This document shows, in pieces, positions 34,577 through 64,000 of a stretch of DNA of 64,000 nucleotides (positions are counted from its first letter, which is position 1; each line of letters opens with the position of its first letter). This DNA is from Patescibacteria group bacterium (GTDB lineage: Bacteria > Patescibacteriota > Minisyncoccia > Phycocordibacterales > UBA1550): NCBI GenBank assembly GCA_038062675.1, contig JBBTWP010000005.1, forward strand, positions 43,844-107,843, given 5' to 3'. A program made the position numbers and the translations under genes. The notes beneath the pieces were generated by a model. It was not told the DNA's origin. It saw only the letters and a list, made by a program, of their open reading frames with translations, and searched no databases.

Positions 34577-34658
34577 AATTATAAGGCGAAAAGTATCGTT
34601 AATTTGTCATTTTTTCTTCTATACACTATTGCTTTTACGTAAAGAAGGGCACTCAACC

Positions 34659-35765: not shown

Positions 35766-35786
35766 AGTATCAGCAGTATAAAGCCA

Positions 35787-36902: not shown

Positions 36903-37027
36903 ACTTATGAAGATACCATTGTTGGGAAGTTTTGAGAAGCATTGACGTTGCGCGCATAACATGCAAGAATCAAAAAAGAACCTGTCGTTGAACCTTTTCA
37001 CTCAAGAAGCAACAAAGGAGATATGTC

Positions 37028-37666: not shown

Positions 37667-37684
37667 CAAAACAAGTTAGAGCAA

Positions 37685-37717
37685 GGCGGTCGTTTCATAC
37701 GACCGCCCTATTTTTTG
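37685..37717 (+). terminator. rho-independent terminator
   Basis: ggcggtcgtttcatacgaccgcc hairpin followed by ctattttttg. Confidence 0.85.
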
Positions 37718-37759
37718 TACAATATCCCTTTTTTCTCAAAAACATGCTAGATTGAATAG

Positions 37760-38299: not shown

Positions 38300-39399
38300 A
38301 CAAACCAGCGACAGAAAAAGAAATATGGGAACAGTACTGCGCAAGTGGAATCGCGATAGTCCGGCCATTGCTCACAAAGCATGGAGTGATTCTCGACGAA
38401 GCTCAACCGCACATTGCCGGAGAACGTTACCTCACACGCCCGCTCGCCGGCGCAAAAAAACTTCTCTTGTTAGGCAAGAGGAGTTCAGATAAAATGCGTG
38501 TGGTGATCAAGGTGGCGAGTGATACCGCTGGCATTGCCGAGATCCAACATGAACGCACTTGCCGCGAGATGTTGAGTTCTATGGAATTTGCGCACAGCAT
38601 ACTGCATTCGCCGGACGAGCTACTATTTATACACGAACAAAATCGAGCAATCCTCGTCAGTGAATTTATCGAACAGCCATGCTCGTTCACCGAGCGCCCA
38701 ATTTCGGAACAATTCACCCTCGCTCTCTCAATTCTCAAAGCACAAGAACAGGCACATGCGACCACTCATGGACACATAAAAACAGTACGCAAAACTTTTG
38801 GGGAGGTGCATGCGGACGACTATCTCACAAAATGCCAGACATACATCACAGAAATTAATGCGAGTGCAAAAAATCAAACCTTAGAGCAAACACTCGGGCA
38901 GAGCCTCCAGCTTTTCAAGGAGAGTACAAAGACTATCGAACAATACACCGGGTTTCTCACGAACTGGGACCTCACCCCACAAAATATTCGTGTCACCAAC
39001 GAGCGTATTTATTTCCTCGACCATGCATCATTTCATTTTGGTAATAAGCACGAAAGCTGGGCGCGCTTTATCAATTTCATGTCGCTCTACGAACCGCAGG
39101 TTGCGCAAGCGTTAATGGAATATGTTCACAGCAACCGCGCACATGAGGAGGTTGCCTCTCTTAAACTTATGCGCATCTACCGCCTCGTTGAACTCATACG
39201 CTTTTACACCGAATGGCTCATGCGTGCCGAAGGGAACGTACGCGAACTCGCATTGGCAAGAATCGACTTTTGGCAGGAAGTACTAAAAGCAACAATCAGC
39301 GACACATTCATTTCCGAAGAAACAAGGAAAGAGTATATGAAAAAACGTGATTCGCTTCGAAGCGACGATGAGAAGAAGCGACAAATTGGTTTACACTAA
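38296..39399 (+). CDS. phosphotransferase-family (APH/choline-kinase-like) putative kinase
   Basis: The catalytic-loop-like NWDLTPQNIRV aligns with HGDLHPGNI of the APH/ChoK family. A downstream IYFLDHASFHFG gives the D-x-A/D metal-binding motif. The start is placed at ATG 38296 (MNKPATEKE...). Confidence 0.6.
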   Translation: MNKPATEKEIWEQYCASGIAIVRPLLTKHGVILDEAQPHIAGERYLTRPLAGAKKLLLLGKRSSDKMRVVIKVASDTAGIAEIQHERTCREMLSSMEFAHSILHSPDELLFIHEQNRAILVSEFIEQPCSFTERPISEQFTLALSILKAQEQAHATTHGHIKTVRKTFGEVHADDYLTKCQTYITEINASAKNQTLEQTLGQSLQLFKESTKTIEQYTGFLTNWDLTPQNIRVTNERIYFLDHASFHFGNKHESWARFINFMSLYEPQVAQALMEYVHSNRAHEEVASLKLMRIYRLVELIRFYTEWLMRAEGNVRELALARIDFWQEVLKATISDTFISEETRKEYMKKRDSLRSDDEKKRQIGLH

Positions 39400-39944
39400 A
39401 GCGCTTTCATCTCTACTACGAGTCCTTCATATTCATCAACCATCGAATGAGTAAGTGAGGCACGAAACATATCGAGCATCGCCTCCTCAAACCAAATTTT
39501 CTTTTCACGTCCAGCATTGAAATAACTCCAAATGGTAGAACCCTGAGCTTGATGTGCAGCAATCAAACTATATGCATTTGCAATTTTGTCTGCCAGTGAA
39601 GCTGCCTTTGCTTCACTCCCGGCACCACGCACCGACTCAATGTACGCTTTTTTCTTTTCCTCCCACGACAGGGTGTCGTCGTGCGTAACGGGTACGACAA
39701 TATCCGTCACATCATCGCCAAGCAGATGGCGCAACTCATCAGCAGTGATATTTGTATCTTCCACCAGATCATGAACAATCCCTGCCGCAATAACGACATC
39801 TGAAAAACCGTGCCGAGCAAGAATAAGTCCGACTTCAATGGGGTGCACGATGTATGGCATTGGTGCCTCTTTGCGCATCTGTCCATCATGAGCGCGAACC
39901 GCAAGCGCAACCGCCCGCTCAATTAAACTATGATTTCGATTCAT
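39396..39944 (-). CDS. HD-domain protein, RelA/SpoT-type (p)ppGpp hydrolase-like (small alarmone hydrolase)
   Basis: YIVHPIEVGLILARHGFSDVVIAAGIVHDLVEDT carries the HD motif of the RelA/SpoT N-terminal hydrolase. At 182 aa it has no synthetase domain. Confidence 0.75.
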   Translation of the reverse strand: MNRNHSLIERAVALAVRAHDGQMRKEAPMPYIVHPIEVGLILARHGFSDVVIAAGIVHDLVEDTNITADELRHLLGDDVTDIVVPVTHDDTLSWEEKKKAYIESVRGAGSEAKAASLADKIANAYSLIAAHQAQGSTIWSYFNAGREKKIWFEEAMLDMFRASLTHSMVDEYEGLVVEMKAL

Positions 39945-39974
39945 AAAAAATAACTAAATTTAACATCATCGTGT

Positions 39975-41171
39975 TTATGACTGCAATGAATTACCGCGCT
40001 TAAGCACAGCGTCGAACACCCGCGTGCGCATTTGTTTCGCAATATTGTCCCAGTCATATTTTTCTTCAACCATTTTACGAGCATGTTCTGAAATCTTTTT
40101 TGCCTTTTCAGGATTTGCTAAAATCTCTTGCACTTTCGCAACAATTTGGTCCGGCGCATCCGGGTCAACCACCCACGCCGTTGGTTGTTTGTCAGGATTA
40201 TGTTTTTCATCAAAGACATAATCCGCCATTCCCCCGACCTGCGTCGCAATGAGTGGCAAACGTGACGCAAGTGCAGAAATGAATGCATTTCCCAACCCCT
40301 CTGACCGACTCGGTGCGACGAAAATATCTGACGCACGACGATAGAGTGTCACCACCCCCCGATCCACCTTGCCAGTAAAAATAACTCTGTCCGCAACACC
40401 AAGGTCTTCCGCAAGTTTTTTGAGCATTGGCGCATCTCCCCCGTCTCCTACTGCGAGGAATTTAATATGCACGGGAAGTTTTACTAAAGCCCGAATCGTA
40501 TCGTCAAACGCTTTTTGATGCACCAAGCGAGAAGTGTTGACCAAAAAAATGTCGCCGGGGTTTTTCCCAAGCTTTTCTTTCATTGCTTCAATCTCAGCAA
40601 CCTCAACCTTGTCTTTAATGTCACGAGGGTTTGCGCCGTTATAAATAAGTTCAATCGGACCTTTGTACCCGCGTTTCCGTGGCCACTCTGCTAAAAAAAC
40701 AGAAATTGCCTGAACCATTGATGCGGTACGAAAACCGTAGTCGAGAATCGGTGCGACAGGGCGAATAAACCATCGTTCAAAGACCTTCTCGTAAGGGTCG
40801 CCGTCTTGCAAAGTAAGGATGTGTGGCGTGCGCACCCCGCATATACGCGCCATTACAACAGGAAAGAGCATGTAGGTCATCATCGCCCACAGTGCGCCAA
40901 AATGATGTTCTTTGTCGAGTGAGCGCGCCTTAAGCCCTGCAAGTGGCACAAAAAATATTTTAGAAAGGTACGCACCGCCAAAACCAACACGGTGCACCAC
41001 AACATTACCAATACGTTCTTCGCGTGGCGCATTTTTGTCGAAAAGGAGTGTCACCATATGAAATTCAATATCAGATGGATTGATGCGCTCCGTGATTTCC
41101 TTGATTGCCGCCTCGGCTCCTGAAACAAAGCTCGGATAATATGCGAGTGAGAAAATAAGGATTTTTTTCAT
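39975..41171 (-). CDS. GT4 family glycosyltransferase
   Basis: N-terminus MKKILIFSLAYYPSFVSGAEAAIKEI. C-terminal ...FVAPSRSEGLGNAFISALASRLPLIATQVGGMADYV. Confidence 0.88.
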   Translation of the reverse strand: MKKILIFSLAYYPSFVSGAEAAIKEITERINPSDIEFHMVTLLFDKNAPREERIGNVVVHRVGFGGAYLSKIFFVPLAGLKARSLDKEHHFGALWAMMTYMLFPVVMARICGVRTPHILTLQDGDPYEKVFERWFIRPVAPILDYGFRTASMVQAISVFLAEWPRKRGYKGPIELIYNGANPRDIKDKVEVAEIEAMKEKLGKNPGDIFLVNTSRLVHQKAFDDTIRALVKLPVHIKFLAVGDGGDAPMLKKLAEDLGVADRVIFTGKVDRGVVTLYRRASDIFVAPSRSEGLGNAFISALASRLPLIATQVGGMADYVFDEKHNPDKQPTAWVVDPDAPDQIVAKVQEILANPEKAKKISEHARKMVEEKYDWDNIAKQMRTRVFDAVLKRGNSLQS

Positions 41172-41195
41172 AACACCCCCATTGTACCAATATCT

Positions 41196-41236
41196 GCATA
41201 AAAATAAAGGGCGGGTCGCGCATGCGCGACCCGCCC
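41196..41236 (-). terminator. rho-independent terminator
   Basis: Perfect 28-nt palindrome gggcgggtcgcgcatgcgcgacccgccc, followed on the minus strand by TTTATTTTTATG. Confidence 0.85.
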
Positions 41237-43646: not shown

Positions 43647-45080
43647 TTATTTCTCTTCCGTTATTTCAAAATCCTCAGCTGAGATTTCATCGGACTTCTT
43701 TTGCCCTCTCCCAAAGCGTAGCCCTACAAGCGCAAATACGCCCAAAAAAGCAACCGCAATATACCAGACCAAAAGACTTTCTTTTTTAGGCTGAACACTA
43801 GTAGCCCCGATTGCAATAACATCAGACAAAGGTTCTAGAGCAGTAGCAAACTGAGTATCACCTTTTAGCCGAGGAGGGACTTTTTGCACAGACACCACCG
43901 GCAAGGATGCCTGCGTCACTATGGAAACATCTTTTTGCACAGATGTTTCTGTTAAAATCATCGGCTTTTCTTTAAGAGAAATAACGGCTGTGCCATTTGG
44001 ATACCGAAGCTCCGCAACACTCCCATCCGGTGTTGAAAGTCTCGTCACCTCAGAAGGAAGCGTCAAAGTCTTTCGAGCTCCCACAAGTGTATTTTTGGGA
44101 AGTACGAATGCGCTGTTCCCAACACCCACCAACCACAAAGACAAATCAATTTCGTCGCTGCCAAGATTTTCAACAGCAACAAAAGAACGCAAAGCATCTC
44201 CGCCTGTCCGAAGAATCAATTCGGGCTTTACCACCGTCACCCACACACGGTCAGATGCGGAATAATATCCCGACGAAGCATCGAGCACCACCACATACTC
44301 GCCCGGATAATAATAGGTATGTAAAACTGATTGCCCTTCGGCTGAGCCTCCGTCACCAAACGACCACACCATGCGCGCGTTTTCAATCGGTTCTTTTTTG
44401 AGACCAAACACTTTGCCGGAAAAAGTCATCGGCGCACCCGTTACGACAGTGCGCGCTGACGCACCCGCATCCACAATTATTTGTGAATCGACAGGAAATG
44501 TCGAGGTGTTTGCCACCGATGTGTTTGATGAAGCGCTCGCAGATGAATTTGAAGACGAAATATTTGATCCTGCCACAAATGTGTCGGCAGAGACTCCGAT
44601 CCCGGGAGTAGGGACTCCTCCTTTCCATATACCCCCCATTTTCTGCAGTGATTTTCCATCCTCCGTCGCACCCATGTCGCTTGCATACACTACCGTATCC
44701 GAAACAGTACCATCCGGCATCTTGAATGCAATCGTTTCGCCTCCATTTTTTAAAGAGAAAGAACTATCGAGGACAATTCCCGAAAATCCAGAATGGTCAC
44801 TTAAAAATATCCCTGCGTTGTCAGCAATAATTGCGTATGCATTTGGCGCCAACGCACCATCCCCTTTTTCTGTAGTCAACCCATGACTGCTTCCACCCTC
44901 TACAAATTTTGATTTTAAAAGATCAACAGCACTTCCTCCACTATTCCAAACTTCCACCCACTCATGCCCCGTATCCGCCCCTTTGGGGTCGTACATAATT
45001 TCTGAAATAACAACCTGCGCAGAAACCATCCTTGCAAACAAAAATAAAAAAAATAATATAATCCACCGCATACTATTCAT
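43647..45080 (-). CDS. secreted/membrane-anchored surface protein with lamin-tail domains (LTD) and a PKD-like domain
   Basis: Signal peptide (ILFFLFLFARMVSAQ). LTD signature VVISEIMYDPKGADTGHEWVEVWNSG. PKD-like WSFGDGGSAEGQSVLHTYYYPGEYVVVLDAS. A second LTD-like segment and a C-terminal TM anchor (LLVWYIAVAFLGVFALVGL). Confidence 0.72.
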   Translation of the reverse strand: MNSMRWIILFFLFLFARMVSAQVVISEIMYDPKGADTGHEWVEVWNSGGSAVDLLKSKFVEGGSSHGLTTEKGDGALAPNAYAIIADNAGIFLSDHSGFSGIVLDSSFSLKNGGETIAFKMPDGTVSDTVVYASDMGATEDGKSLQKMGGIWKGGVPTPGIGVSADTFVAGSNISSSNSSASASSNTSVANTSTFPVDSQIIVDAGASARTVVTGAPMTFSGKVFGLKKEPIENARMVWSFGDGGSAEGQSVLHTYYYPGEYVVVLDASSGYYSASDRVWVTVVKPELILRTGGDALRSFVAVENLGSDEIDLSLWLVGVGNSAFVLPKNTLVGARKTLTLPSEVTRLSTPDGSVAELRYPNGTAVISLKEKPMILTETSVQKDVSIVTQASLPVVSVQKVPPRLKGDTQFATALEPLSDVIAIGATSVQPKKESLLVWYIAVAFLGVFALVGLRFGRGQKKSDEISAEDFEITEEK

Positions 45081-46947
45081 CCCCCTTCAAAATCGCTTTT
45101 AAAACATCTTCGGGAACTTCTTTTATTTCTGCGCGCCGTGGTTCTTCGGGTTTTGGTGTAGGTGCTGGTGTAGGTCGAGGCACAAATGGTGGAGGTGTGG
45201 GTGGTTTGCTTTTTGCAGGTTCCTGATCTTTGAGTACGCCGGCGAGCGCAGACTTGAGTGAATCCATATTTTTTTCACTGGGACCCTTTGTTGGTGCCGG
45301 TGGAATCGCTCCCTTTTCAACTGTTTTTTGGGCAAGAGTGGAAAGAGGAGCACGTGGTGCAGGCGCAGGTGTTTGGCGAGGGGTAGGAGTACTAGTTACC
45401 ACTGGTTCTCGTGCAAGCTCTTTAAATGCCTGTGCAAAAGGTTTTTCAGCTTGTGGTAGTTCTTCTCGTTTTGAGGGAGGTGGAGTTTGATACGTTGATT
45501 TTTGCGGAGAGGATGTCGACAATACCGCAGGTGCATCGGTAGCACGCCGACCATACGAAGGGTTGGCCCCAACAGCGACAGCCCCTTGAGGAGGGCGCAC
45601 AGGAACTGGTTGAGGAGAGGAGGGTGTTGCTGGAGAAATCGAACCACCTCCCTCTGCATACCATTTTGCAATCGCATCTTCGATCAGTGGACGGGGGTGA
45701 CCATAGAGCAAACGCGAGGATTCAATAACTGCTTGTTTGCTTGATTTTGCTGGAGGTGCAATCGGACCCATAGTGACAGAGGAAAACGGATGCGACGCCA
45801 CGCCGTCAATCATGAGCTTTAAATATATTTGCGTAAACCCAAGACTCACCATGTCCTCCGCCGTAAAGACCGGCGCATATTCTTTTTCAAGCATCTCTGC
45901 ATCGGGCGCACCAACGCGAAACATAATCTGCGTCCCGACGTTGCCAAAAATAGCATCGGCGACTTTTTCATCCATCTGCTTGATATACTGATGTGCAACC
46001 ACGAGCGCAAGTTTGTATTTTCGCGCTTCAGACAAAATGTCGGCAAAAGATTCGTTGGCAAACGACTGAAACTCATCCACATACATATAAAAATTGGGGA
46101 GTTTTTTCAGGTCACTCTCCACCAAGTCTGCGCGTGACATCGCCGCAAGATAAATCTTGGTAATAATCATACCTCCCAAAAGATTTGCATTCCCTTCACC
46201 AAGTTGTCCTTTGGAAAGATTCACAATGAGAATCTTTCTCTCATCCATCATCTTACGCAAGTCGAAACTTGAATGGGGCTGTCCGATGATATTTCGGATG
46301 AGCGGATTTGAGGTAAATTGCCCCAACTTGTTTTGAATACCCGGGACGGCATCCTTTGCATAGTTCTCACTATATTTTGCAAATTCGTCAACCCAATATG
46401 CCTTCACCGATGGGTCTTTCACGTTGTCAACAACTTTCTTGCGGTACACTTTATCGGTGAGCAATCGACTTACACCCAGAAGCGTTGACTCCGGATACTC
46501 GAGAAGTGCAAGGAGTGAATTCATGAGAATATATTCCATGCGTGCTGAAAAAGTCTCCGGACCCCAAATCTTTTTGAACGCAGACAAAAGCCCGTTGGCG
46601 ATGAGGTGACGCTTGTCAGGACCCACGTCCTCCATTACGTTGAAAGAGACCGGGTTGTCGGTATCAAACGGCGCAAAATAAACAACGTCCTTTACGCGCT
46701 CTGGTGGAATATAATCCAAAATCATCGCGGCGGATTTGCCGTGCGGGTCGATGAACGCAAACCCTTCCCCATTTCTAATATCCTGCACCACCATGTTCTC
46801 AATCAGTGTAGACTTTCCCATCCCCGTCTTGCCAATGATGTACATGTGGCGCGTGCGGTCTTCGGCTTTGATGCCAAACGGGATGCGCTTGTTGCGCCGA
46901 TCCGTCTCCGCAAAATACGTTATGCGATTTTTATCGTAGAGATACAT
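45073..46947 (-). CDS. TraD/VirD4-like (T4SS-DNA-transfer-type) P-loop ATPase with long Pro-rich C-terminal tail
   Basis: Walker A YIIGKTGMGKSTLIENM plus the FIDPHG motif typical of type IV coupling-protein-like ATPases. Walker B LVVAHQ. The C-terminal ~230 aa are P/T/A-rich low complexity (PPTPPPFVPRPTPAPTPKPEEP). Confidence 0.7.
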   Translation of the reverse strand: MYLYDKNRITYFAETDRRNKRIPFGIKAEDRTRHMYIIGKTGMGKSTLIENMVVQDIRNGEGFAFIDPHGKSAAMILDYIPPERVKDVVYFAPFDTDNPVSFNVMEDVGPDKRHLIANGLLSAFKKIWGPETFSARMEYILMNSLLALLEYPESTLLGVSRLLTDKVYRKKVVDNVKDPSVKAYWVDEFAKYSENYAKDAVPGIQNKLGQFTSNPLIRNIIGQPHSSFDLRKMMDERKILIVNLSKGQLGEGNANLLGGMIITKIYLAAMSRADLVESDLKKLPNFYMYVDEFQSFANESFADILSEARKYKLALVVAHQYIKQMDEKVADAIFGNVGTQIMFRVGAPDAEMLEKEYAPVFTAEDMVSLGFTQIYLKLMIDGVASHPFSSVTMGPIAPPAKSSKQAVIESSRLLYGHPRPLIEDAIAKWYAEGGGSISPATPSSPQPVPVRPPQGAVAVGANPSYGRRATDAPAVLSTSSPQKSTYQTPPPSKREELPQAEKPFAQAFKELAREPVVTSTPTPRQTPAPAPRAPLSTLAQKTVEKGAIPPAPTKGPSEKNMDSLKSALAGVLKDQEPAKSKPPTPPPFVPRPTPAPTPKPEEPRRAEIKEVPEDVLKAILKGDE

Positions 46948-53217: not shown

Positions 53218-54573
53218 TTAAGTGAGTTTTTTCACAAGCGCAACAAACTGATCACCACGATCAAATTCATTTTTAAATACGCCAAAACTTGCCGTGCCTG
53301 GGGAAAGAAGAACGATGTCTCCTTTCTGGGCGTTATGCTGCGCTAGTTGGATCGCCTCTGCCATACTCCCCGCAATAAAAAACGGGTATTTTTTATTCAT
53401 TGAAAGCGCAGCGGCTATTTTGTCGGTACCCGCACCTTTAAATAAAATAAGTGCTTTTACTGTTTTATTTATCCGTTGCGCCATCGGGCGATAGTCGAGC
53501 TGTTTATCGGCACCCCCCGCAAGCAAGATAACATTTTTTGCTTTTTTATCAGAAAACACATCAAGCGCCGCAAACAACCCCGCAGGGCTTGTTGCCGTTG
53601 TGTCGTTTATGTACTGAACCGCACGCACTGTCCGCACCAACTCCTGTCGCCCCGGCACACCCATAAACGTTTCTACCCCACGCTTGATATCTTTTTCCAA
53701 AATCCCCAAGGCTCGACACGCTTCCATGGCACAAGCAATATTTGCGAGGTTATGTTCACCGAGAATTTTTATCTTCCACGTTTTTGGCACGACACTTTTT
53801 CGTGCAACCTGTACTTCACTTTTTATGTTTCCCTTAAACCTCAATTTAATCTCCCCTGCTGCCTGCTCTCCCGCAATAAGAATTTCACCTTTTTTTTGAT
53901 ATTTAAAAATGTTCGCTTTATCGCGGAAATACCAATCCATGCGCCCTTGATAATAATTCATATGGTCAGGAAAAAAATTCGTAAACACAGAGATATGCGG
54001 AGAAATTTTTGCATCACCAAAACCCTGAAGTTTCCATGAATCAAGTTCCATTACCATAATGTCGCCTTTTCGCACTTTGCCCAAAAGTGGCAGTGTGGCT
54101 TTTCCTCTCACATTACCACCCAAAAATACCGACCTTCCTGCCTGTTCTAATATGTGATGAATTAAACCTGTCACCGTAGACTTCCCCCGTGTTCCCGTAA
54201 CACCCACGACAGTTACCTCGGGTGCAAGTTTCAAAAAGAGAGTTTCATCTGTTCTAACCTCAATATGATTTTGTTTCGCCTCCGCTACGTATTTTGATCC
54301 AAGAGGAAGACCTGCTGCCCGAACAATAATATCTTTTTCTTTAAAATCTTGAAGTCGGTGCCCACCAAGAGCGAATGAAATATTATCGTACTTTTTCAGA
54401 CGCAAAACACTCTGTTGCAACATCTTTTCATCTTTTAAATCGGTAACGATGACTTCCGCTCCATGTTGAGCAAGAAATAGAGCATCTTGAACCCCCCGCC
54501 CTTCGGGGTCGATCCCCATGACGGTAATTCTTTTTCCTTTCAAAAAAGTTTTGTAGTTTTCGCCAGACATCAT
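53218..54573 (-). CDS. murD: UDP-N-acetylmuramoylalanine--D-glutamate ligase MurD
   Basis: Rossmann-like N-domain (ITVMGIDPEGRGVQDALFLAQHGAEVIVTD). Mur ligase P-loop VGVTGTRGKSTVTGLI. The start is set at ATG 54573 to avoid running into the tRNA-Ile gene; track start 54657 is an alternative. Confidence 0.88.
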   Translation of the reverse strand: MMSGENYKTFLKGKRITVMGIDPEGRGVQDALFLAQHGAEVIVTDLKDEKMLQQSVLRLKKYDNISFALGGHRLQDFKEKDIIVRAAGLPLGSKYVAEAKQNHIEVRTDETLFLKLAPEVTVVGVTGTRGKSTVTGLIHHILEQAGRSVFLGGNVRGKATLPLLGKVRKGDIMVMELDSWKLQGFGDAKISPHISVFTNFFPDHMNYYQGRMDWYFRDKANIFKYQKKGEILIAGEQAAGEIKLRFKGNIKSEVQVARKSVVPKTWKIKILGEHNLANIACAMEACRALGILEKDIKRGVETFMGVPGRQELVRTVRAVQYINDTTATSPAGLFAALDVFSDKKAKNVILLAGGADKQLDYRPMAQRINKTVKALILFKGAGTDKIAAALSMNKKYPFFIAGSMAEAIQLAQHNAQKGDIVLLSPGTASFGVFKNEFDRGDQFVALVKKLT

Positions 54574-54658
54574 ATGGGATAGATTGTACCATATCAGGAC
54601 TTTAAAAAACCTCTTGTAAGAAAGCCCATTTTCTGATATATTCTCAAAGTGTTCCATT

Positions 54659-55838: not shown

Positions 55839-56804
55839 TTATTCCTCTTCTGCATCCCCCACTGTTCCCAGAGCACACGCAGTAAGAATTTGTTCAATAT
55901 TGCCTAAAAATATCTTTTCTAAATTACTCCACGACTGCTTGATGCGATGATCGGTAATACGGTCCTGCAAAATATTGTACGTACGAATTTTTTCCGATCG
56001 GTCACCGGTACCAATCTGGTTTTTGCGTTCCGTAGAGAGTGCTGCTGCCGTACGTTCGCGCTCTTGGTCTTCTATTCTTGCAACAAGAATAGACATCGCT
56101 TTTTCGCGATTTTTTTGCTGACTTCGCTCACTCGTACATCTGACCGCAAGACCCGTCGGTTTATGAATAAGGCGAACTGCGGTTTCTACTTTATTCACAT
56201 TTTGCCCACCCGCGCCACCCGAACGAGAGAATTCCATTTCAATATCTGCAGGATTGATGTCGGTGTTTTTTGCTTCTCGGACAGGGAGAACTACTACAGA
56301 CGCTGTTGAGGTATGGATACGTCCCGACTTTTCAGTTGCAGGAACACGTTGCACGCGATGCACTCCTGTCTCATGACGGAGAAGTGGGTATGCGTCCTTC
56401 CCGCTAATCTCAAAAGATGCTTCTTTGTACCCACCCATTTCACTTTCTGAAGCATCGATTTTTTTCCACCCCCACCCTTTCTTTTCCGCAAATTTTTCAT
56501 ACATCATAGCAAGGTCTTGCGCAAAAATAGCCGCTTCCTCTCCGCCCGTACCTGCGCGCACTTCCAGAATGAGTTGTTTTGGTATCTCTTCCTCTTCTTT
56601 GGAGGACTCGATGATTTCTGTCATTTGTGCTTCGAGCGTATCAATCTGAGGACGAAGAACTGCAAGCTCTCCTTGCCCGAGTTCATTTAAAGCAGGGTCA
56701 CCTGCCATCATAGTTTTTATCTGCGCTTCCTCGCCAAGCAAGCGCTCATATTCTTGAGCCAAGTACATTGTCTTTGGATTTTTTTTGAATTCTTCAAGGT
56801 TCAT
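55839..56804 (-). CDS. prfA: peptide chain release factor 1
   Basis: [25 protein letters not shown] contains the RF1 PAT stop-codon-recognition tripeptide. GGQ motif at [18 protein letters not shown]. Confidence 0.9.
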
Positions 56805-56877: not shown

Positions 56878-57087
56878 CTATTTCTTGACTGCTGCTTGGC
56901 GCTTCTTGAAACGCTCCACACGCCCACCGCGATCGAGCACTTTTTCCTCACCCGTAAAGAATGGGTGGCAAGAACTGCAGATTTCGATATCAATCTTTGG
57001 CATTATTGACCCAACCGTAAACTTCTCGCCACATGAGCACGAGACGGCTGATTGAATATGGTATTCAGGATGTATTTCTTTCTTCAT
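56878..57087 (-). CDS. rpmE: 50S ribosomal protein L31 (zinc-binding type)
   Basis: MKKEIHPEYHIQSAVSCSCGEKFTVGSIMPKIDIEICSSCHPFFTGEEKVLDRGGRVERFKKRQ. The start is set at ATG 57087 with a GGAG RBS. The track ORF carries a spurious His/Lys-rich extension. Confidence 0.9.
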   Translation of the reverse strand: MKKEIHPEYHIQSAVSCSCGEKFTVGSIMPKIDIEICSSCHPFFTGEEKVLDRGGRVERFKKRQAAVKK

Positions 57088-57144
57088 GCTCCGTACTCTA
57101 TCAAATAAAGGGATATTTTGCAAGATGCAGGGTATAATAGCGAA

Positions 57145-57717
57145 ATGAGAAACATCGTGCTTGGTTTTGTGCTTGTGGCGCTTGTGGGTTTTGGCTTTCA
57201 AGAGCAGGCAACCCTCTCTCCCGTGAATTCTTTGGAGGGGATCAAAGAATTCACGGAAACCCCTACAAAAGCAGTAAAAAATAAACCACCAGCACCCCTA
57301 ACGCGTGTCATTCGCGTTGTTGACGGTGACACCATTGTTATCGAGGAAAACGGCGTCCAAGAAAAAGTGCGGCTCATAGGAGTGAATACACCCGAATCGG
57401 TCGACCCACGGCGTACTGTTGAGTGTTTTGGGAAAGAGGCTTCCAACTTTACAACCATGCTTCTCTTGGACAAGAATGTGCGCATTGAGAGCGACCCTTC
57501 ACAAGGCAACCGCGACAAGTACGGACGCCTTCTACGCTTTGTATTCCTCTCCGACGGAACACTTGCAAACCGCACTATTCTCGCCGAAGGTTACGGGTAT
57601 GAATACACCTACAAAACTCCGTATCGCTATCAAGATGATTTTAAATCTGCAGAAAAGAATGCTCGACGGGGACAAAAAGGGCTTTGGGCAGAAGACGCGT
57701 GCCTGACAATACGCTAA
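57145..57717 (+). CDS. secreted thermonuclease (staphylococcal nuclease, SNase-like)
   Basis: TM/signal segment (IVLGFVLVALVGFGF). The SNase core is VIRVVDGDTIVIEENGVQEKVRLIGVNTPE...GKEASNFT...DKYGRLLRFVF. Confidence 0.85.
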   Translation: MRNIVLGFVLVALVGFGFQEQATLSPVNSLEGIKEFTETPTKAVKNKPPAPLTRVIRVVDGDTIVIEENGVQEKVRLIGVNTPESVDPRRTVECFGKEASNFTTMLLLDKNVRIESDPSQGNRDKYGRLLRFVFLSDGTLANRTILAEGYGYEYTYKTPYRYQDDFKSAEKNARRGQKGLWAEDACLTIR

Positions 57718-57742
57718 AAAAATCGACACCCTTGAAAGGAAA

Positions 57743-58273
57743 CTACTGTCGAGAAGAATTTTTGTACTCGTTAATTACTTTAATGACTTCTGAATCAGGT
57801 TCCAACTCTTGAATGAAAAGAATATGACTTCGTTCTAACTCAATCGCATCAGTTGGTTTATGAAATTCCAGACCAATTTTTACCAATTTTAAATCCGGCA
57901 CTTTGATCTGTTTCCCCTCTTTGGTATTTTGAAGCTGTTCGGTGACACGCAAATAGTATGCATCTTTCAAAACAACAAATGTTCCTTCTTTGTTTGAAAG
58001 TTTACCAAAATAGACATCACCATTTTCCAAAAATACACCGTGGTATTTATCGTCATAAAAAGAAAACGTAGTAGTTGTGGTATTAGTAGAATTTTTGTAC
58101 CACCAGTATCCTCCATATAGAGCACCAAGAACAAAGATTAACCCAAAAAAGAATTTCCCCCACTTCTTGCCTCCTTTTTTAGGACCCTTGTCATGATGAA
58201 AGGACTCGTCATGCGCTTGCGCACTTGTATCCACGTGTTGATTCTGCATATTGTTTTGTGTTTGTATAAACAT
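57743..58273 (-). CDS. hypothetical membrane-anchored protein
   Basis: 176 aa with one TM helix (FFFGLIFVLGALYGGYWWY) and a poly-Thr linker. No recognised motif. Confidence 0.5.
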   Translation of the reverse strand: MFIQTQNNMQNQHVDTSAQAHDESFHHDKGPKKGGKKWGKFFFGLIFVLGALYGGYWWYKNSTNTTTTTFSFYDDKYHGVFLENGDVYFGKLSNKEGTFVVLKDAYYLRVTEQLQNTKEGKQIKVPDLKLVKIGLEFHKPTDAIELERSHILFIQELEPDSEVIKVINEYKNSSRQ

Positions 58274-58329
58274 GGTAAATTATTATGATTGATAAATGTT
58301 TCTAATATTATAACAAAAAATCAAAAATC

Positions 58330-58899
58330 CTACCACGTCATTTTTATCATCATCTCACCAAGAACAGTCCCTCCTCCAAAATCCAACCCGTTAGCTCGAG
58401 CATTTCCCGTACTTAAGTCCCCGTCATCCAGTATCCTATCAATCTCAAGCAACACATTCGTCGGAATGCGCCCCCCATTATCCCCACCCCCCATACCGGG
58501 ACGATCATCATTAAGATCGACAACATAATCATTTCCTCCCCCGTCAATGTCATAATCGTCCGTCGGTCCAAATGCACCCCCCCATGGATGAACCTTGCCG
58601 TACATAACTCCATACGGTCCTGCCCATCCGGAAACACCGAGACTATTCATGAGCGGATCATTTATTGCCGAGCACGGAAATGCGCACTGCGGATTAATCC
58701 CTGTATCAACATAATATTGATACACACTTTTAGAAAGTTCTTTAACCTCAATGACAGTTTTAGCTATTTGGGCTTTCTCCCGAGCTTTTGATATTGCAGC
58801 CAGAATAATCCCCGCAAGAAGACCGATGATTGCAATGACAATCAGGAGTTCGGTGAGGGTAAAGCCTCGAGAAGTATTCGATTTCATAAAACTGGTCAC
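58330..58899 (-). CDS. type IV pilin / pseudopilin (prepilin-type N-terminal cleavage-methylation domain)
   Basis: SRGFTLTELLIVIAIIGLLAGIILAAI is the class III signal peptide with G-F-T-L-T-E. Gly/Asp-rich C-terminal globular part. Confidence 0.88.
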   Translation of the reverse strand: MTSFMKSNTSRGFTLTELLIVIAIIGLLAGIILAAISKAREKAQIAKTVIEVKELSKSVYQYYVDTGINPQCAFPCSAINDPLMNSLGVSGWAGPYGVMYGKVHPWGGAFGPTDDYDIDGGGNDYVVDLNDDRPGMGGGDNGGRIPTNVLLEIDRILDDGDLSTGNARANGLDFGGGTVLGEMMIKMTW

Positions 58900-58905
58900 A
58901 CAAGC

Positions 58906-61900
58906 TTAGTTCGTTAAAATATCTTCACCAACATCTTGCGTGCTAGTAGCAGTGATTGCCGGCGTTGTTGTGGCAATAGGGACTACAATAGGATTTGGGT
59001 CAACCACATTCACTATACGCATTGCTTCTGCGAGCATCGCTCCTGCGCCGTTAATAACTTTGTAAACAATTTCGTGCGTACCCGTCACGCTTGTATCGAT
59101 AATTGGGGTTGTCACCTCTGCGCCATTTTGAAACGCCCGTACTCCCAAATTCACAAGTACCAAATCCGTCGAACTTGCAGTGGCACCAAGATCCCCCCAT
59201 GCTGTTTTCAAATTAACCGTCTGTGGGTTATTCCCGCTAACGATAATTTCTACAGGAGCAGTGGTTGTTGCAATCGGCATAACACTCGCAACCACGCCCG
59301 CATTTTGAGAACCCGGAGTCGTGGCGCCCGAAAGCAATTTATCAAGCTCCACCTTGGTAACACACGTCTCCCCGCTTACACTATCCCCCACGCAGAGCGT
59401 CTTCGTGTGAACACGGTTTGCAAAGAAATCTCCTATGCCATTTGCAACACTTGCGAATTTCTCCGTAATCTGCGCAAAAATATTCGAGAAGAAACTTGAA
59501 GCAAATGAACGAGATTCAGGGGTCGAGCTTGCGGTGGTACCTGCGATGGTTTCAAGGTTGAGGTTAAGCTCTTGCACCGCACCTACCGTGAGGCCCGTGA
59601 TGCGCTCAAAATGAAGCGTGAGTGGCAACCCATCGTAACCATAATCAACGAGCCGAGGATCAACCTTCTCCACTTCTTCCGCAATCAAACCAACAGATGC
59701 AGGACTCTCTTCAGGGCTTGCATATTCGCTTTTATAATCAAACGATACGACTCGCAACTTACCTAATGTCGAAAGTGCCTCTCGAGGAGTGAGTGCCTGA
59801 ATATTCTCTTTGAAACGTTGCGAGGATGGCGTACAGGTACCACCACCGGCGTCGGTGATGTCTTTCCCTGTTGTAATACAGAGCGCATTCCCCGTTGCGG
59901 AAGACGTCAGTCCGTTAAGTGCCACCGTACCATTCACTGAAAACGTACGCCATGGCGTAGTAGAAGCAATACCAATATTCCCGAGGAAATACCCCGTTCC
60001 ATTGTCATTAAACTTTGCAATGGTTGTTGAAGCATTGTTGGCGATCTCGAATGCTTGACCAGTGCCGGTACCACTTCCCCAGACAGAGAGCTTAGAATAA
60101 GGGGTCGTGGTGCCGATGCCCATAAGCCCCCCTACGGTAATCGCGGCCCGCGTACCACCATTAGTGAGGAATCGCAAATCATGATTACTCTTAGTGCCAA
60201 GAACTCCCACACCACCATTACTATTTGTTCCAGCGCAAGATGAACCAGCATGACCATGACAATCACCGATTACCATATCCACAGTACTATCGTTATTGCG
60301 TACTGTCAACGTAACATCAGTCGTGGAATTCCCTTCAAAAAGAAACTGTGTTGTAGCATTGGGACTTTGGTAGGTAGTTCCATTTGCAAGCACTGCCAAA
60401 GCAGCATACCCCGCATCATTTGTATTAATTCCCACAAAAGGATCGCCACCATAACCACTTCCTGTATAAATAAGAGGCTTTGAAGTGTTCCCCGAGCTAT
60501 TGTACACTGCAAACGGAGAATTCTGCCCCGTCTTCGCCTGCACTGCAAAGCGGTTTCTTCCCGGCGTCGTGGTCCCCACAAAGAATGAACCCATCGCGGT
60601 GGAGGTTGCCGTGGTACTCGTCGCCGTAAAGTACCCTGCGATGGCTTCGTTGCCCAACGTGGAGGAACCTTCAACGGAGAGGGTGTAGGCAGGGGTTGAA
60701 GTGGAAAGACCCAATCTACCTGCCGCGCTTAATGTAAGGTACTCCACAGCATTATTGCGAAGGTTTAAAAGTTTACCTGTTGTTGCTGCGCCTGATGAAT
60801 CAAGAAAGATGCCTTGAGCTGCTGACGCTGTTGAAGTGGAAGTGAGGAGCAAGCTAAGGGCAGACGCATTTGTGTCGACACCAGAACCATTGTGTGTGAT
60901 TTTCACTGTTCCTTTGCCTATTTCATTCCCCGTCACACCAAATGCTGAGTAATCTTCTTTTACTGAAGTGACGGTCGCGCATTCAAGGCTACTCCCTGTC
61001 ACAAGATCGCAGTTTACAACCAACGCACCACTCGTTCCATCTTGGTCAAAATAAGCTACCTGCTGGTCAAAGGCGGAATTATCCGCTGTTATTGCCAAGA
61101 GTCTGCCCGAAGCTGTAGCTCCTTGATTGTTATAAATAACTAACCCTGCCCCTGTTGAGTTGGTCGTCGTAAGGTTCACCACGCCTCCTGTTGAAACCGA
61201 CGCTGAATAATCTTTTCCTGACGGAGCAATAATTCCTAAAAGGTTTTGATTTGTTGAGTCAGTTCCAATACGGAGAGTATTCGCAAACGTACTCGTGGCG
61301 GTGGTAGAAGTGGCAATAATATAGTTTACCGTAGGAGATGTGGATGCCGTCAGTGTAGAGCCGTCGCTATGCAACCACCCCTGACCAAACGAGGTTTGCC
61401 CTGTTCCACCTCGCGCAACAGAGATTGTGCCACCATTCCAAGTACCTGATGTGATCGTACCCAACGTGGTGAGGTTGGTCGAACCCGCCCACGTGGAGAG
61501 TGCAGTGTTTTCAACATTGTTGAGTGCTAGAGATGATTTGAGGTTTGCGGTGGAGGTGCCTGCGAGGGTTCCCGTGCCGGATGCATAGAGAAGGTCACCG
61601 AGTGTATAAGAAGAGAGGCCGGTACCACCACGAGCGACCGAGAGCTGCCCACTCCAGCCCAGCGCATGTGCTGTTCCTGAGCTTGCAATGGTAACATTGG
61701 TGTCGTCCGTGAATGTTTGAGTGGCACCGGTAAGTCCATTTAACGACGTGAGACCACTGCTCCCTCCCCCCAGTGCTGTGCCATTAAAATAGAGCGAACC
61801 TCCGGTGTTGTAGAGACGATTTGTTGTCACCGATGGTGCGCTCACTTGCGCAAAATATGCAGGTCCGTTTACTGAAAGTGTGTCCGAAGGAGATGAAGTG

Positions 61901-62841
61901 CCCACACCTACACGACTGTTCACAGAATCGACATAGAGCGTACTTCCAAAATTTGACGCTCCAGTGAATGATGCGGTTGCTCCCGACACAGCACCAGTAA
62001 AAGCACCACTGGAACCCGAAAGAGTTCCATCGAAAGTGGAGCTGGTGATGGTGGCACCCGAAATGGTGACGTTGGAGAGGTTGTTAATACGGTTTGTGAG
62101 TGCAATAGCAGCATAGTTGTCATTTGCGCGCGTGTTGGCATTTGATGCGACGCGATATATTTCTGTCTTGAGTGCATTCTCAAGTTGATTGAGGCGCTCA
62201 GTAAGTGATGTTTCAGAAACACCACTCACTGTTGTGGTCGGCACCTCCACGGTACGCTCGATGACGCGCTCGATGACAGTGCGGACGGGGGCACTCACCG
62301 TAACAGGTACATCCCGTTTTACGGGAATCGAAACAGGCTCATCTTTTTTGACATCTTGCTCGGGAGGTAATTCTCTCTGAGGAGGAGTTTGTTGAGTTGG
62401 AGTAATTTCAATCGGTGGCGGAATTTCTTGCAGTGGTTCAGGTGCGGATTGGGTATTATTTTCTTCCGGCGATCCGAAAAAGAGATTACTAAAAAAACTC
62501 CTAATACTGCTCCATACAGATGCTCCCATCCCGTCTACGGTCGCGAGCAAGTTTTGTCCCACTTCAGTTGTCCTCGAATCAAAAATTGATAAATTGCTAT
62601 CTTGAATTATTTCTGGCTCAACTGTCTCTTCTGATACAAAAGAAAAACTGGTGCGATCTGACAGCACTTCTCGAAAACGATTCTCAGTATTTACCCAAAT
62701 ATCTCTAACTGAGTTTTGCGAAACTATATTTTTCAAAAAAGAACCATCTTGAGCAAATGAAACATTGAACGGCGCAAAGCATACACTTATGGTAAAAATA
62801 CCAAAAATTACATAATGTAAAAATGCGTGCGTAGCGCGCAT
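58906..62841 (-). CDS. giant (about 1,300 aa) secreted fibre-like surface protein, with S/T/G/A-rich beta-rich repeats and an internal peptidase-S74 intramolecular-chaperone-like domain
   Basis: Signal peptide (MRATHAFLHYVIFGIFTISVCFAPFNVSFA, start placed at ATG 62841), then a Pro/Glu linker. About 850 aa are low-complexity G/S/T/A/N-rich, as in tail-fibre or collagen-like proteins. The S74-like domain is SSQRFKENIQALTPREALSTLGKLRVVSFDYK...GLIAEEVEKVDPRLVDYGYDGLPLTLHFERITGLTVGAVQELNL, followed by about 250 further residues. Confidence 0.8.
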   Translation of the reverse strand: MRATHAFLHYVIFGIFTISVCFAPFNVSFAQDGSFLKNIVSQNSVRDIWVNTENRFREVLSDRTSFSFVSEETVEPEIIQDSNLSIFDSRTTEVGQNLLATVDGMGASVWSSIRSFFSNLFFGSPEENNTQSAPEPLQEIPPPIEITPTQQTPPQRELPPEQDVKKDEPVSIPVKRDVPVTVSAPVRTVIERVIERTVEVPTTTVSGVSETSLTERLNQLENALKTEIYRVASNANTRANDNYAAIALTNRINNLSNVTISGATITSSTFDGTLSGSSGAFTGAVSGATASFTGASNFGSTLYVDSVNSRVGVGTSSPSDTLSVNGPAYFAQVSAPSVTTNRLYNTGGSLYFNGTALGGGSSGLTSLNGLTGATQTFTDDTNVTIASSGTAHALGWSGQLSVARGGTGLSSYTLGDLLYASGTGTLAGTSTANLKSSLALNNVENTALSTWAGSTNLTTLGTITSGTWNGGTISVARGGTGQTSFGQGWLHSDGSTLTASTSPTVNYIIATSTTATSTFANTLRIGTDSTNQNLLGIIAPSGKDYSASVSTGGVVNLTTTNSTGAGLVIYNNQGATASGRLLAITADNSAFDQQVAYFDQDGTSGALVVNCDLVTGSSLECATVTSVKEDYSAFGVTGNEIGKGTVKITHNGSGVDTNASALSLLLTSTSTASAAQGIFLDSSGAATTGKLLNLRNNAVEYLTLSAAGRLGLSTSTPAYTLSVEGSSTLGNEAIAGYFTATSTTATSTAMGSFFVGTTTPGRNRFAVQAKTGQNSPFAVYNSSGNTSKPLIYTGSGYGGDPFVGINTNDAGYAALAVLANGTTYQSPNATTQFLFEGNSTTDVTLTVRNNDSTVDMVIGDCHGHAGSSCAGTNSNGGVGVLGTKSNHDLRFLTNGGTRAAITVGGLMGIGTTTPYSKLSVWGSGTGTGQAFEIANNASTTIAKFNDNGTGYFLGNIGIASTTPWRTFSVNGTVALNGLTSSATGNALCITTGKDITDAGGGTCTPSSQRFKENIQALTPREALSTLGKLRVVSFDYKSEYASPEESPASVGLIAEEVEKVDPRLVDYGYDGLPLTLHFERITGLTVGAVQELNLNLETIAGTTASSTPESRSFASSFFSNIFAQITEKFASVANGIGDFFANRVHTKTLCVGDSVSGETCVTKVELDKLLSGATTPGSQNAGVVASVMPIATTTAPVEIIVSGNNPQTVNLKTAWGDLGATASSTDLVLVNLGVRAFQNGAEVTTPIIDTSVTGTHEIVYKVINGAGAMLAEAMRIVNVVDPNPIVVPIATTTPAITATSTQDVGEDILTN

Positions 62842-62961
62842 TTTTTTTCTCTGTATTCGAATAAAAAGATTACTCCCCATACATTTCATTTTATCATACT
62901 TATGCACAATAAAAAACAAATTTCTGTGCATAAGTATCGCAATAAACAAAATGTGCCCCAC

Positions 62962-63009
62962 ACAACCCAAACCCCCATATCACTGGCGTGATATGGGGGT
63001 TTGGGTTGT
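62962..63009. terminator. hairpin terminator (22-bp stem)
   Basis: acaacccaaacccccatatcac-tggcg-tgatatgggggtttgggttgt, lying downstream of the minus-strand gene that ends at 63031. Confidence 0.7.
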
Positions 63010-63030
63010 CGGAGGTATCCCCTCTTTTTG

Positions 63031-64000
63031 TTACATCGTATTCAACTTCCCTCTCGTCTTGGGCCCGAGGTTCCCATACCCCGGAAGGTTAGGTCCCGAG
63101 ATTTGGTACTTCTCCTGGAAGAGCTTGAGGGCTTTGAGGGTAAGTGGTCCAAAGTACTGAGTAGGAGTTGCGGTAAAGAATCCTTCTTGTGCGAGTACTT
63201 GCTGGAGTGCCATGACGTCAGCGCCACGGGATCCCACAAAGAGCATGCGCTTGAAGGTGGTGCCGGTAGGTGCTGGGGTCGACGCACCCGGAGTGACGGT
63301 TGTGGTGGTAATTGACCTCTGTGCCAGAATGCTGTTTGCTTTGGCGCGGGTGGTGGTTGCAAAAGTGCCATCGGAGACTGCTTGTCCTCCTCCACCAATC
63401 TCACTTCGGTATTTTGCTTGGAATTTGACGAGGGCTGTTTTGGTTGCAGGACCAAAGTAGCCGGTGGGTGTTGCAGTCAGAAGCTTCTCTGATACCAAGA
63501 GATTTTGGAGGGTGGTGACGAGTGGTCCTTTGTCCCCTACTTTAAGCTCGGTGGTGAAGACTGGAGTGAAAGTGACAGTCGGTGCAGGGCAAAGTTGTCC
63601 CGTGGTGGTACTGAAGCGGTTGGTGCCGGCACAGCCAGGAATGGATGCTCCGCCACCTTGTGTGGGAGTGGGAACAATGACAGGTTGCCCTGTGGCGGCT
63701 ACGGAAGACGTGACCGTCACGACGTTACTTTGTATAGAAGGAGGGGTCACAACGACAGGAGCAGGTGCAATGCTACCTCCTCCGCCCCCTGACGAACCGC
63801 CACCAGAACTTCCACCTCCGGCACCACTTAGAGCGGGTGCGGGTGCAGCCACAGAGACATTGGTTGACTGGGTTGCTGTGCCACAGGTTAAGGTAAAGCT
63901 TGCAGCAGAGCCAATGGAGCTAATGGTTTCCGTACCACTCAAACCTTTTGTACCACTCCAGCCACCGGATGCAGAACAAGTGCTTGCATTGGCGGATGAC
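63031..64000 (-). CDS. peptidoglycan-binding-domain (PG_binding_1 x2) protein, 5' end outside window
   Basis: Two PGBD repeats: LKVGDKGPLVTTLQNLLVSEKLL...GYFGPATKTALVKFQAKY and LFVGSRGADVMALQQVLAQEGFF...QYFGPLTLKALKLFQEKYQI. A Gly/Ser-rich linker and Thr-rich N-terminal region. The frame stays open to the window edge, and the track start at 63942 is TTG. Confidence 0.75.
   Translation of the reverse strand, partial: SSANASTCSASGGWSGTKGLSGTETISSIGSAASFTLTCGTATQSTNVSVAAPAPALSGAGGGSSGGGSSGGGGGSIAPAPVVVTPPSIQSNVVTVTSSVAATGQPVIVPTPTQGGGASIPGCAGTNRFSTTTGQLCPAPTVTFTPVFTTELKVGDKGPLVTTLQNLLVSEKLLTATPTGYFGPATKTALVKFQAKYRSEIGGGGQAVSDGTFATTTRAKANSILAQRSITTTTVTPGASTPAPTGTTFKRMLFVGSRGADVMALQQVLAQEGFFTATPTQYFGPLTLKALKLFQEKYQISGPNLPGYGNLGPKTRGKLNTM

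Follow-up and report, generated by a model that had tools for sequence, protein, structure and literature searches.

Do genes for surface and secreted proteins that lie side by side in the genome of a small bacterium form a functional module, or are they simply neighbours? This question is raised by a 64-kb stretch (hereafter, the window) of contig JBBTWP010000005.1 of assembly GCA_038062675.1, labelled "Patescibacteria group bacterium" in GenBank, in which genes for a nuclease of the SNase family, a membrane protein of 176 residues (p176), a type IV pilin-like protein and a tail-fibre-like protein of 1,311 residues (the fibre) adjoin one another. The original prediction, made from the sequence of the window, read these genes as a compact toolkit for host attachment and nucleotide scavenging. 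The answer given by the comparison with relatives is that they make up an envelope gene neighbourhood and not a demonstrated attachment-plus-scavenging module. The picture as a whole, that of a chromosomal neighbourhood of envelope genes with a cellular, phage-like fibre as its centrepiece, is one that we consider on balance probable.

The four genes are real and have exactly the coordinates originally given (Table 1). The identical locus is found on eight public contigs (from ENA, NCBI and Logan), the longest of which, of 116.8 kb, comes from the Hainich groundwater well H41, so misassembly alone does not account for the arrangement. The gene map was built from a listing of open reading frames (ORFs) and from domain scans against Pfam, PHROGs and NCBIfam; the Pfam scan of the window took in 48 ORFs, including every ORF of at least 300 residues. 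Export signals, transmembrane segments and domains support an envelope or extracellular location for all of the products, the four being predicted to be exported or membrane-anchored. Domain annotation, which had been proposed as a check, gave SNase, N_methyl, Hyaluronidase_1 with S74, and PG_binding_1 (in the protein beyond the fibre) above their cutoffs, with p176 remaining without a match. The parts are of kinds already known (SNase, type IV pilin, S74 and PL16-type beta-helix) and are labelled so in GenBank, where the Prokaryotic Genome Annotation Pipeline (PGAP) has named the four products thermonuclease family protein, hypothetical protein, prepilin-type N-terminal cleavage/methylation domain-containing protein and tail fiber domain-containing protein. 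What is less ordinary is that the fibre is cellular and predicted to be Sec-exported, that its S74 domain is followed by an immunoglobulin (Ig)-like extension, that its central module is swappable and that it has a recurrent small partner.

The fibre had been described as a giant protein rich in Ser, Thr and Gly. These residues do account for 35.5% of it, but it is not mere low complexity, since it contains Hyaluronidase_1, S74 and Ig-like domains. It begins with a predicted Sec-type signal peptide, MRATHAFLHYVIFGIFTISVCFAPFNVSFA, with cleavage before QDG, and lacks a prepilin leader. PGAP places the start 13 codons earlier, at 62880, the 13 added residues being rich in Arg and Lys. A hairpin with 12-bp arms and one mismatch (AAAAAUGCGCGC-UAC-GCACGCAUUUUU on the mRNA strand, at 62819-62845) encloses the ATG at 62841 and could occlude this start codon; with the PGAP start, the hairpin would lie within the coding region. 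After the signal come an N-terminal domain of ~110 residues, a Pro-rich spacer (15% Pro over residues 101-200) and a coiled-coil neck, "ERxIE...LNQLENxL...IDxLSxxTI", also found in homologues P0011, P0016, P0031 and P0036. The N-terminal domain (residues 31-140) gave no useful model, and the contigs of relatives end short of that region. Residues 350-550 are built of shaft repeats marked by "ARGGTG" and "LALNNVENTALSTW", and a second shaft lies between the central beta-helix and the S74 domain.

By its sequence, the central module belongs to the tailspike class. It matches Hyaluronidase_1 (PF07212) with 78.5 bits against a cutoff of 27 (E 6.7e-22) and the PDB entries of HylP1, HylP2 and HylP3 (2c3f, 2yvv and 3eka) with E about 1e-18. 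When the fibre was searched against a phage collection, this module alone gave matches, namely to tailspikes from two phages of Streptomyces, LuckySocke and Alone3 (39-41% identity), and to the HylP of a Streptococcus pyogenes prophage (about 37%). PMC11669647, citing Smith et al. 2005, gives Asp137 and Tyr149 as the proposed catalytic pair of HylP1, and the same source notes that this Asp/Tyr dyad is not universal even among HylPs. The fibre has kept Tyr149 and has Thr at the position of Asp137, as does the Streptomyces tailspike. Assignment to the PL16 hyaluronate lyases was considered and rejected: despite the Hyaluronidase_1 domain, the fibre is not filed as a hyaluronate lyase because Asp137 is Thr.

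For the S74 domain (PF13884), Pfam gives 44.6 bits (cutoff 22, E 1.7e-11). Its motif, S1006-S-Q-R-F-K1011, has a Ser and a Lys that are invariant in 12 aligned homologues from the Candidate Phyla Radiation (CPR), and its sequence matches 6f45 and 7dc3 in the PDB. An AlphaFold2 (AF2) model of the last 327 residues, which was used for domain-level matches only in view of a mean predicted local distance difference test (pLDDT) score of 56, contains an S74 part (pLDDT 60-88) that matches the MyRF ICA domain, 7dc3, with a Foldseek E of 1.3e-5. S74 would be expected at the extreme C-terminus, to be shed after the trimer has folded; in the fibre, 305 residues follow Ser1006 and include helices, a Cys hairpin and an Ig-like domain. 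The hairpin, "LCVGD..CVT..L..LL", is conserved in the alignment and lies just before the Ig-like domain, the two together being typical of the lineage. This domain is below threshold for Bact_surface_Ig-like (PF16403) in the fibre itself (E 0.0025) and above it in two relatives, with 31.7 bits in L005 and 40.1 bits in L007. At this end, the AF2 model shows a beta-sandwich that matches FnIII/Ig folds weakly. Within the window, no further S74 domain or fibre paralogue was found. In L007 (1-1788), the fibre has kept the Cys hairpin and the Ig tail, and S74 is replaced by a segment, "SDLAENYRSEEPLEAGDVV...", that has no Pfam match. This replacement suggests module swapping at the position of the chaperone.

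The fibre was compared with 119 homologues, the listed set of 120 proteins including the window's own. Residues 350-550 are common to about 80 of the 119, at 55-80% identity, and residues 950-1200 to about 40; the stretch from 550 to 900 is covered by just two to four. The S74 motif is recognisable in 28 of the 120, in which it is mostly followed by 200-450 residues and, in the shorter, phage-like proteins, by about 90-130. A strongly hydrophobic N-terminus is found in about 49 of the 120. Three homologues that combine S74 with Ig on long contigs (L008, L009 and L010) sit among housekeeping genes and have no phage genes beside them. Taken together, the sequences identify the fibre as a cellular, presumably exported member of a CPR-wide family that is built like phage receptor-binding fibres.

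In many giant homologues, the signal peptide is replaced by a start that resembles a helix-turn-helix (HTH), "K.YIS...A....GY..DYI.QL.R.G.I.G...G" (P0006, P0011, P0013, P0026, P0027, P0039, P0046, P0062, P0090, P0091, P0106, P0115, P0120 and L072 at 2464-7965), and Pfam confirms HTH_17 for L072, P0026 and P0083. With a DNA-binding-type domain at one end of a huge fibre and S74 at the other, such proteins are reminiscent of MYRF.

How does the fibre compare with systems already described? With the S74 fibres and tailspikes of phages, such as the K1F endosialidase endoNF and gp37 of S16 (6f45), it shares the Ser-x4-Lys pair in S74, a repetitive, beta-rich shaft, a triple beta-helix ahead of S74 and a modular, variable middle. 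Unlike them, it is encoded on the chromosome among housekeeping genes, carries a Sec signal, lacks accompanying virion genes and continues beyond S74 into a helical region, the Cys hairpin and the Ig-like domain (about 200 residues). With HylP1/2/3 (PL16, from streptococcal prophages) and the Streptomyces tailspikes, it has in common a homologous beta-helix of ~160-190 residues that is 35-41% identical; besides the change at Asp137, it differs from the HylPs in that this domain forms part of a protein four times as long. MYRF, a eukaryotic membrane-bound transcription factor and the best structural match (7dc3), is a precedent for the cellular, non-viral use of a self-cleaving trimerisation domain; however, cleavage in MYRF frees a DNA-binding domain inside the cell, whereas the S74 of the fibre is predicted to be extracytoplasmic and lies near the C-terminus. 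The type IV pili of Saccharibacteria with their PilY1/PilC adhesins resemble the locus in that a prepilin-type gene adjoins that of a large surface protein. The locus differs from such systems in having no PilY1/PilC domains, no minor-pilin set, no PilB, PilC or PilD nearby and a pilin that is dispensable in relatives.

Domain architecture, export signals, conserved catalytic motifs, strands and spacing, and the pattern of linkage are read directly from the data; the sequence of events that follows is a proposal. The fibre would be exported by Sec, its S74 domain would drive trimerisation and then cut itself at Ser1006, and this cleavage would release or loosen the C-terminal piece of ~305 residues. 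The mature trimer would project from the cell, where the variable central module would bind, and perhaps cleave, a polysaccharide on a partner cell or in the matrix. p176 would partner giant surface proteins in the envelope, for example as a dock or as an aid to export or assembly. The nuclease would act as an independent scavenging enzyme, and the pilin would be a dispensable orphan.

The partner proposed here, p176, has a Lys-rich N-terminus that is predicted to be cytoplasmic, a transmembrane helix (residues 39-63 of the model), an extracytoplasmic, beta-rich domain and a C-terminal helix. No match was obtained in Pfam, PHROGs or NCBIfam, nor in Pfam for 49 members of its family, and no relative by sequence was found in the PDB. 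In the AF2 model, the pLDDT is about 85 in the barrel and ectodomain, which weakly resembles Sm/LSm barrels (Foldseek E 2e-4, TM-score about 0.66 on the target). Its profile matches 2,923 representative clusters (at 50% identity) with E of at most 1e-3, and a single peptide pattern confirmed 575 stretches of the family in species-representative genomes. Eighty of these distant loci (L015-L094, at 29-49% identity) were listed; they are mostly from the CPR, including Parcubacteria-type genomes, Saccharibacteria, Uhrbacteria, Doudnabacteria, Komeilibacteria, Buchananbacteria and others. Judged by its sequences, p176 represents a Patescibacteria-wide family that has escaped annotation. Members have 130-230 residues, one transmembrane helix, an Sm-like beta-barrel and the invariant motif "VFL.NG.VYFGK ... 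LVK.G.E.H.P".

Are the four genes held together in relatives? The close relatives were located via p176, at 48-89% identity. In L005 (p176 89% identical), the C-terminus of the fibre is followed directly by p176, with no pilin, and then by the convergent SNase gene, L31 and the release factor. In L007 (55%), a fibre with the Ig tail but no S74 match precedes p176, again without a pilin, and SNase. L012 (51%) has the Ig tail of the fibre, a pilin (56% identical), p176, SNase and L31, and L006 (48%), the upstream side of which is cut, has p176, SNase, L31 and the release factor. The order of fibre, p176 and convergent SNase is kept wherever it is visible (L005, L007 and L012, with p176 and SNase in L006); of the three relatives in which the junction between fibre and p176 can be read, L012 alone has the pilin. 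A lack of conserved linkage in relatives had been named as grounds for abandoning the toolkit, and in this close clade the linkage is not lacking. L31 and RF1 also stay adjacent in this clade; therefore, neutral synteny is sufficient to explain the recurrence.

At a greater distance, the linkage of nuclease and pilin dissolves: in the 80 distant loci, SNase lies within 8 kb of p176 in none, a pilin in two and L31 or a release factor in one. Nor does a pilin adjoin the S74 fibres of L008, L009 and L010, the first of which lies near L31 and the release factor. The one association that survives distance is that of p176 with genes for giant surface proteins upstream of it. In L032, L043 and L045, the gene immediately upstream of p176 encodes an S74 fibre; a phmmer match to the fibre is found in eight of the 80 loci, always upstream and co-directional, with L045 as an extra case detected by Pfam only; and ORFs of at least 1,300 residues end within 6 kb of p176 on the upstream side in 13 of the 80 and on the downstream side in none. 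Of the four genes, only those for the fibre and p176 show a linkage that could be functional.

Two further arrangements were seen in these comparisons. Just downstream of p176, about 10 of the 80 distant loci have a co-directional gene for a protein of ~780-890 residues with C-terminal TPR repeats (L016, L018, L027, L048, L069, L093 and others), which could be another partner that recurs with p176. The window has a Wzy_C and TPR protein elsewhere, at 7864-10047. In L009 (4445-9954), from an unrelated metagenome-assembled genome (MAG; GCA_964562615.1), genes for an SNase, a Gmad2 immunoglobulin-like protein and an ORF of 84 residues lie divergently, ~1 kb from a fibre with S74 and Ig. This is a second, independent case of proximity between a nuclease and a fibre, and it may be due to chance.

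The nuclease itself is probably an ordinary secreted enzyme of the Ca2+ type that degrades extracellular nucleic acid. SNase (PF00565) matches with 76 bits against a cutoff of 21 (E 3.5e-21), and the PDB SNase match has E 3e-20. In its fold family, its active-site residues and its N-terminal export signal, it resembles staphylococcal nuclease (Nuc/NucI), of which it keeps D21, R35, T41, E43, Y85, R87, Y113 and Y115. Among the Ca2+ and catalytic residues of the family, it departs from that enzyme in having N for the Ca2+ ligand D40, a position that varies between N and D among relatives, and it scores below the equivalog cutoff for the NucI-like match in NCBIfam. A hydrophobic N-terminal segment, serving as signal or anchor, and two conserved Cys are consistent with export. 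The GenBank record is MEK7538948.1. The gene is convergent with that for p176 across a gap of 25 bp and divergent from rpmE (L31). It is indeed adjacent to the others, as the description "back-to-back" had it, but lies on the opposite strand, and therefore cannot share a transcript with the fibre, the pilin and p176; the adjacency is lineage-specific. A perfect TATAAT lies 8 nt upstream of its ATG (57120-57147, + strand), with no Shine-Dalgarno sequence, and its mRNA may be leaderless or nearly so.

The pilin is genuine but probably a dispensable orphan at this site. Its leader is MKSNTSRG/FTLTE (in context, MKSNTSRG/FTLTELLIVIAIIGLLAGI), with the Gly-1, Phe+1, Glu+5 and hydrophobic helix of a class III signal. 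N_methyl matches with 31.2 bits (cutoff 21.2) and TIGR02532 is also above its cutoff; the T2SSG and GspG matches are below theirs. The gene (product MEK7538950.1) begins 18 bp past the fibre stop codon. A regular-expression search of the 64-kb window gave G/FTLTE as the only prepilin motif, and neither PilB, PilC, PilD or PilM nor a prepilin peptidase was found by Pfam in the 48 ORFs. The closest homologue (67%) adjoins T2SSE and T2SSF genes on L011, which is from the same sample as L005 and has a canonical pilin-pilin-PilB-PilC operon; the homologues in L013, L095 and L096 are lone genes amid housekeeping genes. The fibre, with its Sec-type signal and without a prepilin leader, cannot itself be a pilus subunit. 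Nor does it have the features of a pilus-tip adhesin of the PilY1/PilC class: no such domain was found in it by the Pfam scan, its signal is of the Sec type and no linkage to a pilin is conserved.

On the other side of the fibre gene, the "peptidoglycan-binding protein" of 303 residues that the original prediction had placed there does have two PG_binding_1 domains, but its size is an artefact of the window edge. It is the C-terminal end of a secreted protein of 2,939 residues (L001, 992-9811) with a Kelch propeller, a PcRGLX-like lyase barrel, fn3 and the two PG_binding_1 domains at its C-terminus. About a dozen Ig-like repeats, "TLTA.P..V..G...TL.W.S.NA..C.A", are also present in this giant. 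Directly after its stop codon lies a perfect hairpin with arms of 22 bp; the surrounding 96 nt (62935-63030) have a folding free energy of -52.2 kcal/mol and a z-score of -7.5, with none of 200 shuffles folding as well. This hairpin is a probable terminator separating the giant from the fibre gene. Since it is followed, within the spacer of 189 bp, by an extended -10-like element, TGATAAAAT, before the fibre gene, the two genes are probably separate transcription units. The fibre, pilin and p176 genes, with gaps of 18 bp and, between pilin and p176, of 56 bp containing TGTTATAAT, may form one operon with an internal promoter, p176 possibly having an extended -10 promoter of its own. The neighbourhood is accordingly divided into at least three transcription units (the wall-binding giant; fibre, pilin and p176; and the nuclease).

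Table 1. Coordinates of the features of the locus and of the fibre domains within the window
Feature	Positions	Strand	Evidence or remark
MurD-like ligase	53218-54657	-	
tRNA-Ile	between MurD-like ligase and 126-residue protein		
126-residue membrane protein	between tRNA-Ile and tRNA-Ser	+	
tRNA-Ser	between 126-residue membrane protein and release factor		
Class-I release factor (RF1)	55839-56804	-	
Ribosomal protein L31 (rpmE)	56878-57087	-	
SNase-family nuclease, 190 residues	57145-57717	+	Pfam SNase
p176, 176 residues	57743-58273	-	one transmembrane helix
Type IV pilin or pseudopilin-like protein, 185 residues	58330-58887	-	N_methyl
Tail-fibre-like protein, 1,311 residues	58906-62841	-	Hyaluronidase_1 and Peptidase_S74
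Fibre, Ig-like domain (residues 1201-1279)	59005-59241	-	Bact_surface_Ig-like
Fibre, Peptidase_S74 intramolecular-chaperone/autoproteolysis domain (residues 1006-1065)	59647-59826	-	Pfam PF13884
Fibre, HylP/PL16-type triple-stranded beta-helix (residues 547-704)	60730-61203	-	Pfam Hyaluronidase_1, PDB HylP matches
Perfect 22-bp hairpin	62962-63009	-	folding
Last 323 codons of the 2,939-residue giant	63031-64000	-	frame open to window edge

What weighs against the picture of an envelope neighbourhood centred on a cellular fibre? The trimerisation, autocleavage and ligand binding proposed for the fibre are deduced from homology alone, its enzymatic activity is uncertain given the absence of the catalytic Asp137 of HylP, and the model of its C-terminal part is of low confidence overall. 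A cleaved signal peptide would, moreover, leave the retention of the fibre on the cell without an explanation. As to the linkage, the close-clade synteny may reflect recent common ancestry alone, the association of p176 with giants is found in a minority of loci (about 16%), and ORFs of at least 600 residues are about equally frequent on both sides of p176 in the 80 distant loci. Finally, a generic scan for promoters and terminators gave no more sites than in shuffled sequences, a scan that also missed the strong hairpin.

Three other explanations have to be set beside this picture. That the nuclease, pilin, fibre and p176 are one co-selected module for host attachment and nucleotide scavenging, with the fibre as a pilus-associated adhesin, appears improbable to us. 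All four products are predicted to act outside the cytoplasm, L012 has the same order of four genes at about 50-56% identity, an SNase lies close to an unrelated S74 fibre in L009, and the epibiotic growth of cultivated Saccharibacteria depends on pili and adhesins (PMC10633639 and PMC12206443). However, the nuclease gene is read from the other strand, no pilin occupies the slot in L007 or even in the 89% relative L005, and neither gene accompanies p176 in the distant loci beyond the two cases with a pilin. Pilin homologues are mostly orphans or belong to a PilB/PilC operon, and none adjoins the S74 fibres of L008-L010; the claim that the fibre is pilus-associated meets a Sec signal without a prepilin leader, the lack of PilY1/PilC domains and the lack of pilus machinery in the 48 scanned ORFs. 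The idea that the fibre is mainly a secreted polysaccharide depolymerase (a PL16-like lyase) used for feeding or for clearing a path overlaps with the favoured picture; we hold it to be unlikely, if still worth weighing. Its Hyaluronidase_1/PL16 match is well above threshold, Tyr149 of HylP1 is conserved and the giant upstream has a PcRGLX-like lyase domain, which would make glycan processing a local theme; against it stand the Thr in place of Asp137 and the fact that about 85% of the fibre is shaft, neck and chaperone, as is typical of binding fibres.

That the fibre gene was left behind by a prophage or a tailocin-like element is the natural suspicion, given that its recognisable modules are all of phage type (HylP/tailspike, S74 and shaft motifs) and that PGAP names it a tail fiber protein. 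Virion proteins carry no N-terminal signal peptide. The fibre has one; among the 120 listed proteins, about 49 start with a strongly hydrophobic segment and others with the HTH-like one. The genes around that of the fibre are for L31, RF1, Mur ligases, tRNAs and surface proteins, with no virion, lysis or integration genes; the PHROG matches are at the level of domains only; the same slot is occupied in diverged relatives; and the fibres of L008-L010 also sit among housekeeping genes. Flanking genes, signal peptide and conservation of the site led to the rejection of a prophage origin, which we regard as very improbable.

The rest of the window is likewise dominated by envelope functions. A block of low GC content (34-40%, compared with about 45% elsewhere) at ~11400-27300 (- strand) and 34600-41200 consists of co-directional surface-polysaccharide genes for GT1, GT2 and GT4 glycosyltransferases, two UDP-GlcNAc 2-epimerases, an Asn-synthase-like amidotransferase, a methyltransferase, a flippase and a Wzy_C/TPR ligase-like protein. 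At 43647-46947 (- strand), a gene for a VirD4/TraG-like coupling protein of type IV secretion (TrwB_AAD_bind and TraG-D_C) adjoins one for a secreted protein with Lamin-tail and PKD domains, and no further conjugation genes were recognised nearby.

A bolder proposal goes beyond the envelope neighbourhood itself. Patescibacteria might have domesticated phage receptor-binding fibres as organelles of host recognition, docked or assembled with the help of p176, and the mosaic similarity of these fibres would then reflect an evolution of host range like that of phages. The widespread fibres that are Sec-exported (or have an HTH-like N-terminus), the conserved shafts, the swappable tailspike modules and the Ig-extended S74 are the features behind this proposal, which is speculative and which we think rather unlikely. 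A search of the literature, which was incomplete, so that an earlier description is possible, found no link between Patescibacteria and S74 or tail-fibre-like proteins or adhesins. The Tn-seq paper published in Cell in 2023 mentions adhesins, type IV pili and type IV secretion systems and does not mention tail-fibre-like proteins; papers on the genetics of Saccharibacteria, such as PMC12206443, speak of pili, type IV secretion systems and adhesins in general terms. Pili have been implicated in episymbiosis (PMC10633639 and PMC12206443).

For the reading of such loci, there is a caution: adjacency alone does not make a toolkit, and the linkage of the nuclease and the pilin dissolves beyond one narrow clade. 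For the biology of these bacteria, how ultra-small episymbionts recognise and attach to their hosts is a question that is still largely open, the genetically supported players being pili and unnamed adhesins, and these in Saccharibacteria only. For structural and genetic studies, p176 offers a clearly defined object. Cell-encoded fibres resembling those with which phages bind their receptors are concrete candidates for determinants of host specificity, and the exchange of their modules could be mined across thousands of MAGs.

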